Assembly: GCA_043816185.1 (NCBI GenBank)
Contig: JBDRIG010000030.1
Span: 1 to 20,197 of the forward strand
Direction of reading: 5' to 3'
Origin: Elusimicrobiota bacterium
Lineage (GTDB): Bacteria > Elusimicrobiota > UBA8919
Length of the DNA: 20,197 nt
Each line of letters begins with the position of its first letter. Positions within the stretch are counted from its first letter, which is position 1. Made by a program: the position numbers. Of this stretch, positions 6,001 to 12,000 are shown piece after piece.

Positions 6001-9000
6001 TCTCTAAGTTTTATTGCAATTGGAAGAACACCATTAACCCGTCTTATTGAACCATCAAGAGACAGTTCGCCCAATAATGCATATTTTTTATTGCCAGTTT
6101 TTATTTGTTCTGTAGCGAGAAGAATTCCTATTGCAATAGGCAAATCAAAAATCGCACCTTCCTTTTTTACTCCAGCAGGTGCAAGATTGACGATAACTTT
6201 TTTCGTCGGAAAATCAAAACCGGAATTTTTTATCGCTGAAATAACCCTGTCACGAGATTCTTTTATAGATGTATCAGGAAGTCCAACTATACCAAAAGTA
6301 GGAAAACCGCTGGAAATATCAATTTCAACAGTAATGATATATCCATTTATTCCATAGACAGATGCAGAAAGTATTTGTGAGAGCATATTTTTTTCTTTTA
6401 AGGTAGGACGGTCGAGTAGATTCTACGAGTAAATTCAGCACAGATGAATCTTTCGGTGAAAATCTTTAAACCCTATCACTACTTCATTAAGTTCAGTTTG
6501 TTATTGTGAATGACCTTGTCTGTCATTGCGGGAAGTGAATGAAATGAGCGTTAGAGGTTGTCCGACAAATCGTAAAACAGTCATTTTTTTTTGTAAAATA
6601 TAGCAGTATTTGGCAACTAACGGCAACAAACAACACATCATTTTTTTACTAACGCTGTGTCGTCGGTAAAGCGGAATAGGTTGTTGGACAGCCACTATTA
6701 CGCGATAGATGTATAACAATCCAATCGTCGCCGCTATATTGCGAAACCAGATGGTGCAAACGCATTTTTTATATGTTCAATTTTATCATTGCAGATGGCA
6801 ACTATGTCAAATCTATAATCAGTATTCAGAGATTTTTTTTTAATGAAGATAATGGCGGCAAGAGCTAAATGCTTTTGCTTATATTTAGTAACGGCAAGTT
6901 GTGGATCTCCATAATTACTATCTTTTCTGGTTTTAACCTCTACAAAAACAAATGTTTTTTTGTCTTTGACAATTATGTCTATCTCTCCATATCTGGTTCT
7001 GAAATTTTTCGCTACGATTTCATAACCAATTTTTTTAAGATATTCCTCAGCAAGTTCTTCTCCAGATTTTCCAAATTCACTCGACTGATTCATATCACCT
7101 TGATTTATAATTTTCTGATTTATAGCTTCGCACAGGTTCAAAACTTTTTCTGTGAATTTTACAGGGACCAAATATTTCAATCGACTTTACATGAAATTTT
7201 GTGCCATAACCCTTATGTTTTGCAAAACCATAATTGGGAAATTGCCTGTCATATTTTTCCATCAACACATCACGTGTCACTTTTGCAACAACTGAAGCAG
7301 CCGCAATAGATGCACTTTTTGAATCGCCCTTCACAATCGTTTTCTGAGCAATCTTTATATTTATTGTTTGATTACCGTCTATAATAACTAATCTTGGACT
7401 AACTTTCAATTTTTCAATTGCAATTTTCATTGAAAGTTTTGTTGCTTCTAAAATATTAATACGGTCTATTACCAGGTGGTCTACAATTCCGACCTGCCAG
7501 TCAATGCATTTTTTGATAATTTCTTTATAGACGGAATACCTAATTTTTGGGGTGAGTTTTTTTGAATCGTTTAGATTTTTTATTGAGGTGTTTTTTTTTA
7601 GTATCACTGATGCTGAAACAACGGGTCCTGCCAATGAACCTCTGCCTGCTTCGTCAACACCGACGACAAAACCAAATTTACAAAATTTTTTGTCAAAATC
7701 AAACAATTTTTTTCCCGAAAACACTCGGGATTTCGTTTTATTCAGCATTATTTGCTTCTATTTTCACTTCGCTCTTAACAGACTCATTTGCAACAGGCTC
7801 TTTTACAGCAGACTCTTTTGCTACGATGATTTCTTTTACTTTTTTTTCTTCAATTTTTGCCAATTTGCCAGACAATCCACGCAAATAATATAAACGGCTT
7901 CTTCTTACCTTACCAAGTTTTACAATTTCTATTTTTTCTATGCGTGGCGAGTTAAGAAGAAAAATTCTTTCAATGCCAATACCAAAAGAAACTTTTCGGA
8001 CTGTAATTGTCTTGCTGATACCAGCACCCTTTTTTCTTAAAACCACTCCCTCAAAAATCTGAGTTCTCTCAAAATCACCCTCAATAATTTTGTAGTGGAC
8101 CTTTACCGAATCTCCGGGCCTAAAAATAGGTATCTCTTTTTTTTGATACTGATTTTCAACAACACTCATAATGTTTTCCATTTTTTTCTCCCTCCAAAGT
8201 ATTGTGGTGAACTGACATGAAACCTAAAGCACGAAATATAATATGTAAAACAGATACTAAACTATTTCCGTGTCAGTTACGTATTTTGTTTTGCGTGCAC
8301 CTCACGATTTTTCAGTAATTCTGGACGTTTTGATAATGTATTTTGACGAGCATTTTCTCCACGCCATTTTTCTATTTTTTTGTGATTGCCTGATAAAAGT
8401 ACTTCTGGAACTTTTAAGTTGCGAAAATTGTAAGGTCTTGTATAGACAGAACTTGCAAGACCGCCAATCCAGTGTGAATCATTTTTAATAGAGTCACTTT
8501 TTGCTACAACTTTCGGAAGTATGCGGACTACCGCATCAACGACCGCCATAGTCGGAATCTCGCCACCAGTCAAAACATAATCTCCGATGGAAATTTCCTC
8601 ATCAACAAATTTTAGAACTCTTTCATCAACTCCGCCGTAATGACCACAGACAAATATCAAGTGCTTATATTTTGAAAGTTCCTTTGCTTTTTTTTGATTA
8701 AAAACTTTTCCCTGTGGCGAAAGTAAAATAATTTTTTCATTTTTATTTTTCACTCGCCCGACGGTAGTCAAATAAATTTTACACCTTACGCTTTCTACCG
8801 CTTTAACAACTGGTGGCACCATCATAATCATTCCAGCGCCGCCACCATATGGTTTGTCGTCAACAATTTTGTGTTTACCCTCAGCAAAATCTCGTATATC
8901 TGTAATTTTTATTTTTACAATTTTTTTATCAACAGCTTTTTTTAGAATACTTTGAGAAAAAACAGAATCAAAGAGCGACGGAAAAAGCGTCAATATATCT

Positions 9001-12000
9001 ATTTGCATTCGCTATATTCACCCTATTTATGATCTATACTCGCTCTTCCATTTCTACCCTGTATTTTTTGCCGTTTTTTGTTGCACCTGCTGAAACTATC
9101 TGTCTTATTGCTTTTATAATTTTTCCATGCTTGCCGATGATTCTGCCCTTATCATCATCTGCAACTTTTATTTTTATAACATCTCCTATTTCCGATTCAT
9201 CTAACAGTATATCAACATTTTCTGGCTTATCAACGAGTGATTTTACAATATATTCAACAAATTTTCTCATTTTAAATCTCCTCCGTAAATCTATAAAAAA
9301 CTATTGTGGTGAATTAGTTTTGCCAAATTTTTCAATAATGCTTTTTACTGTATTAGAAACAATTGCACCTGTTTTTATCCAGTAGTTTATTCGTTCCATT
9401 TTTAGTAATACATTTTTTCTATCACGCGGACTATAATGCCCAAGTTCTTCTAATGGTTTACCGCACTTTCTTTTTTTTGAATCGATCGCTACCACACGAT
9501 AATCTGGACAAAGCGATTTCCCAAGTCTCCTTAGTTTAATTGTAACTGCCATTTTTTGACCTCCTTTATATCAGAGATTAAGAGAGATAAAAAGTAAGAG
9601 AGGTAAGAGGGTAAAAAATTTTTCTCTTGCCCATCGTTTTCTTGTCTCTCATTTCTTGTCTCTCATCCCTATCCAACTAACATTTTTAATTTTTTTATAC
9701 TTTTTTCAATTCCAAGATTTGATCTAAAAACTGAATTGCCGGCGACAGCAATATCAGCACCTGCTTTTACCACATCCGCTATTGTATCAAAATTTATTCC
9801 GCCGTCAACACTTATTTTTATTTTCGTTATGTTTATCCGTTCAGAAGATTTCAAAGAATGTGTTGCAATATTTTTATTTTTTATCAATTTTTTCAATTCT
9901 GAAATTTTTTTTAGTGCCGATGGAATAAACTTCTGTCCACCGAAACCAGGAACAACACTCATTATAAGAATTAAATCCACTTCTTTAAGATATTTTGTCA
10001 GTAACGAAATGGGTGTTGCTGGATTAAGTGAAATACCAGCTTTAAGTTTCAGTGATTTTATTTTTTCAATCAATCTTGATGGATTTTTCACCGTCTCAAT
10101 GTGAAAGGTTATCCAATCACTTCCTGCTTTTGCAAACTGCTCAACATATTTTTCTGGTTCCGCTATCATCAAATGCGTATCTAAAATCATTTTCGTAGAT
10201 TTTCTTATCGATTCAACCACTACTGGACCAATAGTTATATTTGGAACGAAATGGCCGTCCATAACATCAATGTGCAAAATTTTTGCACATGCTTTTTCAC
10301 ATTTTTTTATGTCATCTGCCAAATTTGAAAAATCTGCGGACAAAATTGAAGGAGCAATTTCAATCATTTTTTATTTACCTGCGAACACTCAAACGATAAT
10401 CGAATGTAGTCAAATTGTGATTATATTCGGCGTGATTATTCGGTGTTTTTATTTGAGCCTATTGCGTCCAGAATTCTATCGTTTCATCTTTATTAATTAT
10501 GGTATTGTTTTCTGGCATTTGTTTTGTGATAGTATTTTTAGCAACTACCAAATCCTCAACCTTATTTATATTGCTAATTTTTATATCATTTTGATTAGCC
10601 CAATTTTGAGCTTCAAATATATCTTTCCCCAAAAAATTAGGCATTATCAAGGTTCCCTCTGGTGGAAGACCTAACGAAACAACTATATTGACCAACCCGT
10701 CTTTCTGAATATGTGTTCGTGGGTTAGGATTTTGTGAAACTATATTTCCTTTTTCAATGACTGTTGAATATATCTCATCTTGTTCACCTAGATCTAGCCC
10801 ATTTTTTCTTAAAATAAGTTGAGCAGAACGAACAGTTTGATTTGTTAAGTCAGGAATATATATAACTTCACTTCCGACGGAAACCACAACATTTACAGAT
10901 TTACCTTCTTTAATTATACTTCCTTCAACAGGCGACTGCGAAATTATTAAACCACATGGTATCTCTACATTAAATTCTTCACCAGTTTTTTTAAGATACA
11001 AATTTATCGATGACAGTATATCTAACGAATCGGCAATATTTTTTCCTACAATGTTTGGTACAACTCTATCTTTTTTACTATGAATTAGCACATCAATTAA
11101 ATGATTTGTTCCAATAGCAAGAACAATTATTCCTATTAAAAACCACAGAATCCATGAAAAAAGTTTTCTCATTATATTTTAACAACGATGAAAACAAAAT
11201 AACACACTGATTTATATTGATTTTCATCTGCGTTGTATCAGTTCTTTATTTGTCTAAATCGTCTTACTTAATAAATAATTCGCGGACCTTCTGCTATTTT
11301 CTCAAGTCGTTTGATTCGCTCTTGTATCGGTGGATGTGTAGAAAACAATTTAACTATCGCACCATTTTTAAGCGGGTTCACTATAAATAAATGGGCTGTG
11401 AATGGCTCAACCCTGCCATGCGAAGCGGAACTTCTTTTTGTCTGAATAAATTTTCCTGAAGAATAATCTTCTAATTTTTTTAATGCGGATGCTAGAGATA
11501 ACGGCATTCCTGTCAATTTTGCCGCACCTTCATCTGCACCGTATTCGCGTGAACGAGAAATCGCAAGCTGGATAAAAAGTGCTGCTATTGGTGCAACTAT
11601 TGCTGTTACCAAAAGCCCAATACCACCACTTCTATTATTATTGTCATCACGAGAACCACCACCAAAAATCGCAGTAAATTGTACTATTCTCGCAATCATT
11701 GATATTGCACCTGCCATCGTCGCTGCCATTGTCGCAATTAAAATATCGCGGTGTGATATATGTGCAAGTTCGTGTGCCAATACTCCCTCAAGCTCATTTT
11801 CATTAAGAATGTCTAACACCCCTTTCGTTACGGCAATAGATGCATGTTGAGGATTTCTGCCAGTAGCAAATGCATTCGGCGTTTCCATCGGAAGAATATA
11901 AGCTTTCGGCATTGGGATATTCGCTTTTACGATGAGTCGTCTTATCACTCTATATATTTCAGGTGCGTCATTTTCGGAAATTGGTTTTGCCCTGTACATC

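Follow-up and report, generated by a model that had tools for sequence, protein, structure and literature searches.

The window, the whole stretch of 20,197 nt analysed here from one Elusimicrobiota genome (G000), carries the gene order rpe-rpsP-khpA-like-trmD-rplS-rnhB-yraN. All operon genes are encoded on the minus strand, and their coordinates are given with the stop codon counted in. The first gene of the operon, rpsP (9301–9552), is an 83-aa ORF for ribosomal protein bS16 (PF00886, 60.2 bits against a cut-off of 27). It is followed by a 78-aa ORF for a KhpA-like KH-domain RNA-binding protein (9034–9270; PF13083 KH_KhpA-B, 83.3 bits against a cut-off of 32.1), by trmD for the tRNA (m1G37) methyltransferase (8277–9008; 243 aa, PF01746, 190 bits), and by rplS for ribosomal protein bL19 (7738–8181; 147 aa, PF01245, 149 bits). 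The end of rplS is overlapped by rnhB, encoding RNase HII (7095–7748; PF01351, 125 bits), and a yraN-family (UPF0102) gene lies beyond it (6734–7180; PF02021, 96.7 bits; NCBIfam YraN family, 111.9 bits). The upstream neighbour rpe, for ribulose-phosphate 3-epimerase (9669–10367, minus strand; PF00834, 251.5 bits), is conserved in relatives. A retained ribosome-associated GTPase gene, typA/bipA, is found elsewhere in the window (1680–3491, minus strand; TIGR01394, 866 bits against a cut-off of 757).

In E. coli, rimM lies between rpsP and trmD. The rpsP and KH genes of the window are separated by 30 nt, and the KH gene and trmD by the 25 nt that correspond to the rimM slot of other Elusimicrobiota (9009–9033, minus strand, by ORF coordinates); these spacings therefore leave no room for rimM. 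Together with the gene order, the 25-nt junction bears out the genome-wide survey's note, which had described the rpsP operon as lacking rimM. The trmD span given there (8280–9008) marked the correct gene and omitted the stop codon at its end.

The order rpe-rpsP-KH-trmD-rplS-rnhB-yraN was common to six complete loci of close relatives (TrmD identity 66–88%), and rpe adjoined the operon in L048–L050, L052, L053, and L064. A seventh relative locus (L051) begins at trmD and shows only trmD-rplS-rnhB-yraN. In the six close relatives whose loci cover this slot, no ORF intervenes before trmD. Elsewhere in Elusimicrobiota, the same slot is occupied by a full-length RimM ORF (L108) or by an ORF encoding just the C-terminal domain of RimM (L146, L147, and L148; 84–104 aa from the first start codon).

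The KhpA-like gene sits at the position expected for rimM, and one explanation of the missing genes is that their functions are kept by proteins that we did not recognise: Era, Der, or RimM copies diverged past the profiles, or non-orthologous substitutes such as the KhpA-like protein or unnamed ORFs. The 78-aa protein covers PF13083 nearly end to end (positions 2–72 of 73), as expected of a KH_KhpA-B family member, and it scores 69.9 bits on NCBIfam PRK00468, below the cut-off of 106. Its KH fold resembles the KH part of Era only weakly (E 0.14 against a profile built from Elusimicrobiota Era). However, rpsP and the KH gene are also adjacent in lineages retaining RimM or Era (L108 and L146–L148), which indicates that the KH gene did not come in as a substitute when the others were lost. 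In one relative, G005, a Jag gene was confirmed (163 bits).

The absence of the three proteins was examined in a sample of the order comprising 12 genomes in 7 genera (1.4–3.0 Mb; completeness 78–99%; none closed, the best in about 30 contigs), in which all first-look candidates were scored for Era, Der, and RimM. No genome of the 12 had an Era match above the TIGR00436 cut-off of 116.25 bits (best, 79.1). The sub-cut-off matches extended only from profile positions 2 to about 190 of 270 and did not span the G and KH domains of the whole profile; the ORFs behind them were assigned to MnmE, Obg, HflX, FeoB, HydF, YchF, or IF2, part by scanning and part by length. Similarly, no Der match exceeded the TIGR03594 cut-off of 306.7 bits in the 12 genomes, the best (147.6) falling on MnmE, and RimM (TIGR02273; N-terminal barrel plus C-terminal PRC-barrel, ~170 aa) was absent from all 12, with a best match of 12 bits (E 0.1). 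The earlier count of none over the cut-off in 12 genomes therefore stands with all candidates scored.

A census of MMR_HSR1 matches at E ≤ 1e-5 in the same 12 genomes revealed no Era-sized ORF (~300 aa), none with two G domains, and none of EngB/YsxC size. The two small ORFs, of 196 and 238 aa, encode an N-terminal fragment of FeoB and a protein resembling MeaB (239.7 bits against a cut-off of 240.75). The weaker matches that were inspected were MnmE, Obg, HflX, FeoB N-terminal pieces, HydF, RsgA (3 of 3), or MeaB-like; the remaining ones fit YchF or translation factors, an assignment made by ORF length only. Most Obg, HflX, YchF, FeoB, and IF2 assignments rest on ORF length and N-terminal sequence, and Obg of G000 was scanned. 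The survey had cautioned that a divergent Era might lie among the weaker matches; those inspected were other GTPases, and the rest were judged by length.

The ~460-aa GTPase ORFs of the relatives, which had been guessed to be MnmE, did prove to be so: all three that were scanned scored 406.6–420.9 bits on MnmE TIGR00450 (cut-off 252.6). The other eight, identified by N-terminus and length rather than by single scans, share the same N-terminus; seven are full at 461–472 aa and one is cut by a contig end. In the one case examined, the ORF upstream of MnmE scored as Jag/EloR.

More sensitive profiles were built from 23 Elusimicrobiota Era sequences with 3 outgroups and from 24 Der sequences with 4 outgroups, and were run unfiltered against the 13,304 ORFs of at least 40 aa in G000. 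The sole matches of the Era and Der profiles in this genome were to G domains, those of Obg, IF2, HflX, LepA, and YchF (≤46 bits). The best G000 matches were an unrelated 163-aa ORF for the KH part of Era (E 0.024) and a 45-aa ORF for the KH-like part of Der (E 0.012), and the phylum RimM profile reached E 0.026 at best. The gene neighbourhoods told the same story for der. In family f4, der lies in the order hflX-der-plsY-gpsA (L134), and at another locus (L136) der-plsY-gpsA is preceded by some other gene. G000 instead has miaA-hflX-pgsA-plsY, so that pgsA (TIGR00560, 110.4 bits) occupies the der slot and the usual Der neighbourhood is not found; in G001, hflX is followed by ORFs that appear by eye to be pgsA-like and plsY-like.

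All of these searches used sequence profiles, which are blind to non-homologous or structurally cryptic proteins. Yet G domains are highly conserved, and the 12 genomes contained no ORF shaped like Era, Der, or EngB at E ≤ 1e-5, nor did the unfiltered phylum-specific profiles find a match in G000. We therefore consider unrecognised substitutes unlikely. As judged from the profile searches, the conclusion that Era, Der, and RimM are not recognisable across the lineage holds.

A further explanation is that the organisms do have the three genes, on stretches that the assemblies missed or on contigs left unbinned. The G000 assembly, of 112 contigs, has a completeness of 94.28%, and rRNA is unassembled, including its 16S rRNA. 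Moreover, as the survey had noted, G000 has no ~460-aa GTPase: it alone lacks MnmE, which is present in 11 of the 12 genomes, showing that single genes do drop out of an assembly. Against this, the absences recur in all 12 genomes and 7 genera, and the rimM and der slots lie on intact contigs, where they are empty or filled by another gene. Assembly quality is not the cause, because RbfA was recovered in 200 of the 201 genomes of a phylum-wide sample and single losses are also seen in closed genomes from other parts of the phylum. Der was absent from all five closed or nearly closed genomes G065 (1 contig), G069, G020, G053, and G089, and true Era from all five of G042, G034 (1 contig each), G028, G123, and G064. 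The artefact explanation is thus close to refuted, and we regard it as very improbable.

We then placed the order within the phylum. Among the 201 Elusimicrobiota genomes, which are a sample of the phylum, 86 had Era only, 79 had Der only, 36 had neither, and none had both. Era was thus absent from 115, Der from 122, and any RimM match from 111; RimM was full-length, cut down to its C-terminal domain, or absent. Of 110 Era-profile matches in the phylum, 24 were the two G domains of Der, with coordinates identical to the Der matches. The survey was accordingly right that Era occurs in the phylum, although part of the matches it counted are Der G domains. Its view that the loss is clade-specific was not upheld, since the order is one corner of a phylum-wide mosaic of Era, Der, and RimM absences. 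Several families have neither Era nor Der, and six of them, including both families of the order, also lack any RimM match. The order is the extreme end of a phylum pattern in which no sampled genome holds both Era and Der.

Gene trees were consistent with vertical inheritance of Era and Der in the phylum. In the Der tree, all 24 phylum copies separated from the 4 outgroups (support 100/97), and the topology mirrored the RpoB+RpoC tree. In the Era tree, f29, f19, f21, f22, f7, and f12 formed one clade (100/98), and a grouping of all 23 phylum copies was not rejected (p-AU 0.12). The position of the order on the species-tree backbone was weakly supported (66–85). The genes are thus missing from all 12 genomes of the order and present, with apparently vertical descent, elsewhere in the phylum, and RbfA is found, as a lineage-wide loss would predict. 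The order very probably descended from ancestors with both Era and Der, and the two genes would have disappeared along the long branch that leads to it.

These losses might not have been neutral. Era and Der could have become alternatives, one making the other dispensable or costly, with the order later losing the last one. The complete lack of two-gene genomes in the sample fits this, as do f15 (Der) and f29 (Era), sister families joined with a branch support of 100. Assuming no regain, 5–7 inner nodes held both genes, and the two-gene state ended on 7–9 separate branches. In addition, both proteins join an Era-type G domain to a KH or KH-like domain. However, an independent-pairs test found only five pairs, in which Der moved opposite to Era in 1–2 and had the same state in 3–4 (p ≥ 0.5). 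Family f29 is a single MAG whose lack of Der comes from a run scoring 8 candidates per genome, and the 201 genomes only sample the phylum. The 36 genomes with neither protein also indicate that neither is needed. Wherever the two have been studied, Era is known as a factor of the 30S subunit and Der as one of the 50S. We thus consider this reading of Era and Der as alternatives rather unlikely. The broader reading, that Era and Der, apparently inherited vertically from two-gene ancestors yet never found together in the sample, became interchangeable or jointly dispensable in Elusimicrobiota, is offered tentatively.

For the order itself, we favour the reading that Era, Der, and RimM are very probably truly gone, rather than hidden, split, or missed through poor assembly, and that ribosome assembly runs on the remaining factors. 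RbfA (a 115-position family) was found in all 12 genomes, and Obg-sized and HflX-sized matches were likewise present in 12 of 12, in agreement with the survey; the 30S factor RsgA was found in 3 of 12. The 30S factors retained in G000 comprise RimP (47.5 bits), YbeY (97), KsgA (246), and RbfA (69). Its 50S or quality-control GTPases include Obg (528 bits) and the BipA encoded in the window, with LepA and YchF also present. The survey had listed YbeY among the factors found, which our re-run, covering G000 only, supports for that genome. Alongside Era and Der, no EngB-sized GTPase, RimM, or SRP was found in the order. The lack of SRP had also been reported by the survey; Ffh/FtsY were detected in none of the order's 12 genomes and in 1 of the 201 in the phylum sample.

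Neither E. coli nor B. subtilis can live without Era or Der, and both proteins have been put forward as targets for antibiotics. In E. coli, cells without rimM survive but grow slowly, a defect that extra RbfA suppresses, Era overproduction suppresses an rbfA deletion, and overproduction of Obg or Der suppresses an rrmJ deletion. These genetic interactions suggest that overlapping factors such as RbfA and Obg, combined with slow growth, could make Era, RimM, and Der dispensable. The late checkpoints, provided by Era and RimM for the 3′ domain of the 30S subunit and by Der for the 50S core, may be kinetic aids rather than chemical necessities. Assembly in the order would then be carried by the remaining factors, RbfA, Obg, and HflX, and in G000 also RimP, YbeY, KsgA, BipA, LepA, and YchF. 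Unlike in E. coli, rimM, era, and der are naturally missing here from an entire order, which keeps RbfA; the operon shows no trace of rimM.

Comparable losses are described for CPR/Patescibacteria in passages of a recent study (PMC12641178, Mol Biol Evol 2025): der, era, obgE, or rbfA is missing from whole classes, rimM is almost never present, factors form complementary pairs, and the losses are read as descent from a factor-bearing ancestor. The pairs described there are der/obgE or era/rbfA, whereas that of Elusimicrobiota is Era/Der. Elusimicrobiota are a non-CPR phylum, lacking Der in 122 and Era in 115 of the 201 genomes; unlike CPR, they keep RbfA (200 of 201) and, in the genomes inspected (12 of 12 of the order), Obg, and the order's genomes are of 1.4–3.0 Mb compared with around 1 Mb in CPR. 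A 2023 review (PMC10582724) names Dependentiae, Chlamydia, and most CPR as Era-less, and its Fig. 1 legend places era in some Elusimicrobiota species and not in others. Its passages on Elusimicrobiota give no account of which lack Era and draw no tie to Der or RimM, and its Era-less groups are called 'extremely genome-reduced', unlike members of the order, which reach 3.0 Mb. Few Elusimicrobia have Ffh or FtsY according to a study of protein targeting (PMC7987157, PLoS Comput Biol 2021), in line with our SRP counts; the passages concerned say nothing about ribosome-assembly GTPases. Era patchiness and missing SRP in Elusimicrobiota are therefore already published. The survey's core reading, that no Era, Der, or RimM is recognisable, stands, but its statement that the loss redraws the minimal set overstated the novelty in view of what PMC10582724 and PMC12641178 describe. 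Our literature search found no published report of Der or RimM loss, or of Era/Der exclusion, in Elusimicrobiota.

A non-CPR phylum with ordinary genome sizes thus shows every Era/Der combination except both, which narrows the set of assembly factors seemingly needed by a bacterial genome of free-living size. RbfA is the factor that persists through the phylum sample, and among the assembly GTPases it is Obg that was retained in all genomes inspected. The genes era, der, rimM, ffh, and ftsY are among the standard bacterial marker genes, and their use would under-count completeness in Elusimicrobiota. Related lineages that carry just Era, just Der, or neither of the two constitute a testable natural experiment and, if the tentative reading of Era and Der is true, cultured Elusimicrobiota would provide a natural system for learning what these GTPases are for.

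The rpsP operon of the Elusimicrobiota genome under study (G000) lies on the minus strand of the window, which corresponds to contig C30. It runs rpe (10367..9669; Ribul_P_3_epim, 252 bits), rpsP (9552..9301; S16, 60 bits), a KH gene of 78 aa (9270..9034; KH_KhpA-B, 83 bits), trmD (9008..8277; tRNA_m1G_MT, 190 bits), rplS (8181..7738; L19, 149 bits), rnhB (7748..7095; RNase_HII, 125 bits) and yraN (7180..6734; UPF0102, 97 bits), all identified by Pfam matches. Because the gaps between rpsP and the KH gene and between the KH gene and trmD measure 30 and 25 nt, there is no space for rimM, and the genome-wide survey's note correctly described the operon as lacking it. 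The closest public TrmD loci are titled as Elusimicrobia or Elusimicrobiota (66-88% identity); the order rpe-rpsP-KH-trmD-rplS-rnhB-yraN was repeated in six of them, and in a seventh relative (L051) the locus opens at trmD and only the downstream genes are visible. At a locus from a more distant 'Endomicrobia' (L108), the KH gene and trmD are separated by a 183-aa ORF that aligns with the full length of RimM (65.6 bits, cut-off 66.2). The window also encodes a protein of 237 aa in which three PASTA domains occur and the kinase part is absent (10459-11172, minus strand; PF03793, 121 bits), and a 564-aa ORF (12401-14095, plus strand) that, judged by eye, is a candidate fusion of Memo-like and AMMECR1-like parts.

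The note's broader claim, that the ribosome-assembly factors Era, Der (EngA) and RimM are missing from all 12 genomes of the order, held up in profile searches in which every first-look candidate was scored. These genomes represent seven genera and are 78-99% complete; G000 comprises 1.44 Mb in 112 contigs (completeness 94.28%, contamination 0.54%). None of the 12 exceeded the cut-off for Era (TIGR00436, 116.25 bits; top score 79.1) or Der (TIGR03594, 306.7 bits; top score 147.6), and RimM (TIGR02273) was found in none, with a top score of 12 bits. Each of the Era, Der and RimM runs scored all 10 control bacteria above the cut-off. Phylum-specific profiles (23 Era plus 3 outgroup sequences; 24 Der plus 4) were run unfiltered across all 13,304 G000 ORFs of at least 40 aa and matched nothing beyond the G domains of Obg, IF2, HflX, LepA and YchF, with scores no higher than 46 bits. 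When the KH part of Era and the KH-like part of Der were used alone on G000, the best E-value was 0.012, and a RimM profile from seven phylum proteins reached 0.026 at best. The top Era-KH match (E 0.024), a 163-aa ORF at C19:8787-9275, was dismissed, as no KH GxxG core was aligned and its surroundings consist of mobile-element-like genes. The same assembly contains no SSU rRNA (16S), the molecule that Era binds near its 3' end, and includes two giant open frames, one of 9632 aa that is open at the contig start (C101:3-28898, plus strand) and one of 7136 aa (C99:598-22005, plus strand); an identical N-terminal sequence is common to contigs C101 and C106.

A second syntenic scar, in addition to the rimM slot, is seen next to hflX. 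At a locus from family f4 (L134) the gene order is hflX-der-plsY-gpsA, whereas the intact G000 contig C51 reads miaA-hflX-pgsA-plsY, pgsA being assigned by TIGR00560 (110.4 bits, cut-off 109.1). In G001, from the order's second family, hflX is likewise followed by pgsA-like and plsY-like ORFs, assigned by eye.

The weaker GTPase matches were also inspected, by scan for MnmE, RsgA, HydF, a MeaB-like protein and FeoB pieces and by length for most others. The strongest Era and Der matches in the order fell within ORFs of 461-496 aa, on their G domain. As the note had proposed for its ~460-aa GTPase, all three that were scanned are MnmE (407-421 bits, cut-off 252.6); the remaining eight were assigned on the basis of an N-terminus in common with these, and the single ORF scanned upstream of MnmE is Jag/EloR. 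A census of MMR_HSR1 G domains (E<=1e-5) across the 12 genomes returned sizes fitting Obg and HflX in 12 of 12 and MnmE in 11 of 12, together with sizes fitting YchF, FeoB, IF2, an EF-G-like protein, LepA and BipA; most Obg, HflX, YchF, FeoB and IF2 rows were assigned from ORF length and N-termini. G000 alone lacks MnmE, which is probably an assembly gap. RsgA was present in only three of the 12 (G010, G002 and G011; 155-178 bits, cut-off 100), HydF in G001 (540 bits) and a MeaB-like protein in G005 (239.7 bits, marginally below 240.75), and two census ORFs are N-terminal pieces of FeoB. Within this census there was no ORF of Era size and shape, none with two G domains, and none of the size of EngB/YsxC (~200 aa) in any of the 12 genomes. 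The coordinates accompanying the EngB/RsgA observation are L142:964-2046(-), L143:556-1641(+) and L144:1015-2049(-), at three loci.

The reported lack of SRP was likewise reproduced: SRP54-type GTPases (Ffh, FtsY, FlhF; PF00448) were found in 0 of 12 order genomes with all candidates scored, and PF00448 occurred in one of 201 phylum genomes, as a single match in a 423-aa ORF of G120. No G000 ORF of at least 80 aa combined the SRP-type P-loop with the G3 pattern, and the 4.5S RNA family was not found in this genome. Absence of SRP from Elusimicrobia is already in print in general terms (PMC7987157).

The distribution of Era and Der was examined in one sample of 201 Elusimicrobiota genomes from 31 families (f1-f31), with the top 8-15 candidates per genome scored. 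The Era search (E<=1e-25) gave 110 matches, which resolved into 86 true Era proteins and 24 G domains of Der, the latter having coordinates identical to those of Der matches. Among the true Era proteins, 84 aligned over almost the whole profile, their frames measuring 290-440 aa apart from one of 920 aa; of the other two, one was matched in two pieces and one was truncated at a contig end. True Era was confined to f7 (57/58 genomes), f12 (11/11), f13 (8/9), f19 (3/4), f21 (5/7), f22 (1/2) and f29 (1/1). Der was detected in 79 genomes: f4 (58/64), f10 (2/2), f11 (2/2), f14 (3/3), f15 (4/4), f17 (2/2) and f27 (2/2), with one each in f5, f9, f25, f28, f30 and f31, and none of the 58 genomes of f7 carried it. 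Thus 86 genomes had Era only, 79 Der only, 36 neither and none both. Full scoring found Der in none of five genomes (G065, one contig; G069, two; G020, four; G053; G089), and true Era in none of five Der-bearing ones (G042 and G034, one contig each; G028; G123; G064), whose above-cut-off Era tallies arise from summing Der's two G domains. When 13 'neither' genomes from outside the order were put through the MMR_HSR1 census, Era was missing from all and no ORF had a pair of G domains. Two possible Era frames were rejected, a 371-aa one in G095 being a short Obg (418.9 bits) and a 358-aa one in G104 an HflX cut by the contig end (432 bits); the ORFs of ~210 aa in f18, f22 and f26 are EngB/YsxC (175-199 bits). 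The Candidatus Omnitrophota MAG that carries locus L056 (G204; 1.4 Mb, completeness not given) had no Era at E<=1e-30 and no Der at E<=1e-50 with all candidates scored; a study of biogenesis-factor loss in CPR bacteria mentions few such factors for Omnitrophota (PMC12641178).

RimM showed a graded pattern, with matches (E<=1e-5) in 90 of the 201 genomes. Near full-length proteins occurred in 17, 16 of them above the cut-off, from f3, f5, f6, f9, f13 (9/9), f18, f23 and f24. In the other 73 the match was confined to the C-terminal PRC-barrel part; the frames are 83-156 aa long, and the matches begin mostly at profile position 88-107 (72-84 in four rows). These genomes belong to f4 (62/64), f10, f11, f17, f25, f27, f28, f30 and f31. 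At three loci these short proteins of 84-104 aa (L146:2070-2384(+), L147:2341-2646(-) and L148:2053-2307(+)) are encoded precisely in the rimM slot, in the order rpsP-KH-short rimM-trmD. In four f4 genomes (G102, G086, G013 and G194) the RimM alignment extends further upstream through stop codons, a pattern suggestive of a decayed N-terminal domain. No RimM match was obtained in f1, f2, f7 (0/58), f8, f12, f14, f15, f16, f19-f22, f26 or f29. Era, Der and RimM are all missing from f1, f2, f8, f16, f20 and f26 (18 genomes).

To place these patterns, a species tree was computed from RpoB and RpoC (55 genomes, 29 of 31 families, 2590 columns; IQ-TREE quick, LG+G4), with f11 and f28 omitted because rpoB was broken or not found. 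In the f11 genome G176, the rpoB match (C5:41563-45300) falls into five pieces, four with 1-3 in-frame TGA codons, whereas its der gene has none; this may reflect a faulty assembly, a disrupted gene or recoding. The order's two families, f1 and f2, grouped as a clade with support of 100, with a long stem (0.32) and a weak placement on the backbone (support 66-85). The minimum number of changes on this tree was five for Era, four for Der, nine for the three states and five for RimM. In the Der tree a branch with support of 100/97 divides all 24 phylum copies from four outgroup copies (Bacillota, Bacteroidota, Desulfobacterota, Atribacterota), and the internal order of the phylum copies parallels the species tree. 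The Era copies of f29, of f19, f21 and f22, and of f7 and f12 formed one clade (100/98) that also parallels it, with f13 outside on a long branch; monophyly of all 23 copies, a group defined after inspection of the tree, was not rejected (p-AU 0.12).

Family f15, which has only Der, groups as sister to f29, which has only Era (support 100), and their ancestor therefore most simply had both genes. If neither gene was regained, both would have been present at 5-7 inner nodes and this state would have ended on 7-9 branches, with 8-10 losses of Era and 7 of Der, counts that depend on a backbone weak in places, on a single MAG for f29 and on 3-4 outgroups. Regain of era or der by outside transfer was assessed against these 3-4 outgroups only. 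Coupled evolution of Era and Der was considered; an independent-pairs test was not significant, with too few pairs (five; p at least 0.5).

Other assembly factors are retained. RbfA was found in 200 of the 201 phylum genomes and in all 12 of the order (in G000 at C66:2082-2411, 69 bits), and a small assembly-factor gene is therefore reliably recovered from these assemblies. G000 also encodes RimP (47.5 bits, upstream of nusA-infB), YbeY (97 bits), KsgA (246 bits), Obg (528 bits) and BipA (866 bits), and HflX, YchF and LepA were recognised by eye from sequence. In many bacteria rbfA comes after infB; in G000 rimP-nusA-infB is intact (C82:1446-5956, plus strand), and rbfA lies elsewhere, on contig C66.

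The absence of the three factors from the order is thus confirmed, and we have high confidence that the lineage-wide loss is real. Part of the picture is already in print, namely the patchiness of Era and the missing SRP in the phylum: a figure legend in a review of Era records the gene in some Elusimicrobiota species and not in others, and the review counts Dependentiae, Chlamydia and most CPR among the lineages without Era (PMC10582724). In the CPR study, Elusimicrobiota are absent from the main text, with four in its genome list (PMC12641178). Our literature search turned up no account of Der or RimM in Elusimicrobiota; nor did it turn up any description of Der being lost from most of the phylum, of RimM decaying in steps, of the lack of any genome with both Era and Der despite the apparent vertical descent of both, or of whole families without Era, Der and RimM. 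The loss is of a known kind, as in CPR, and the new case here is in a non-CPR phylum with ordinary genome sizes; in the order, ribosome assembly would proceed by an inferred route that does without Era, Der and RimM.
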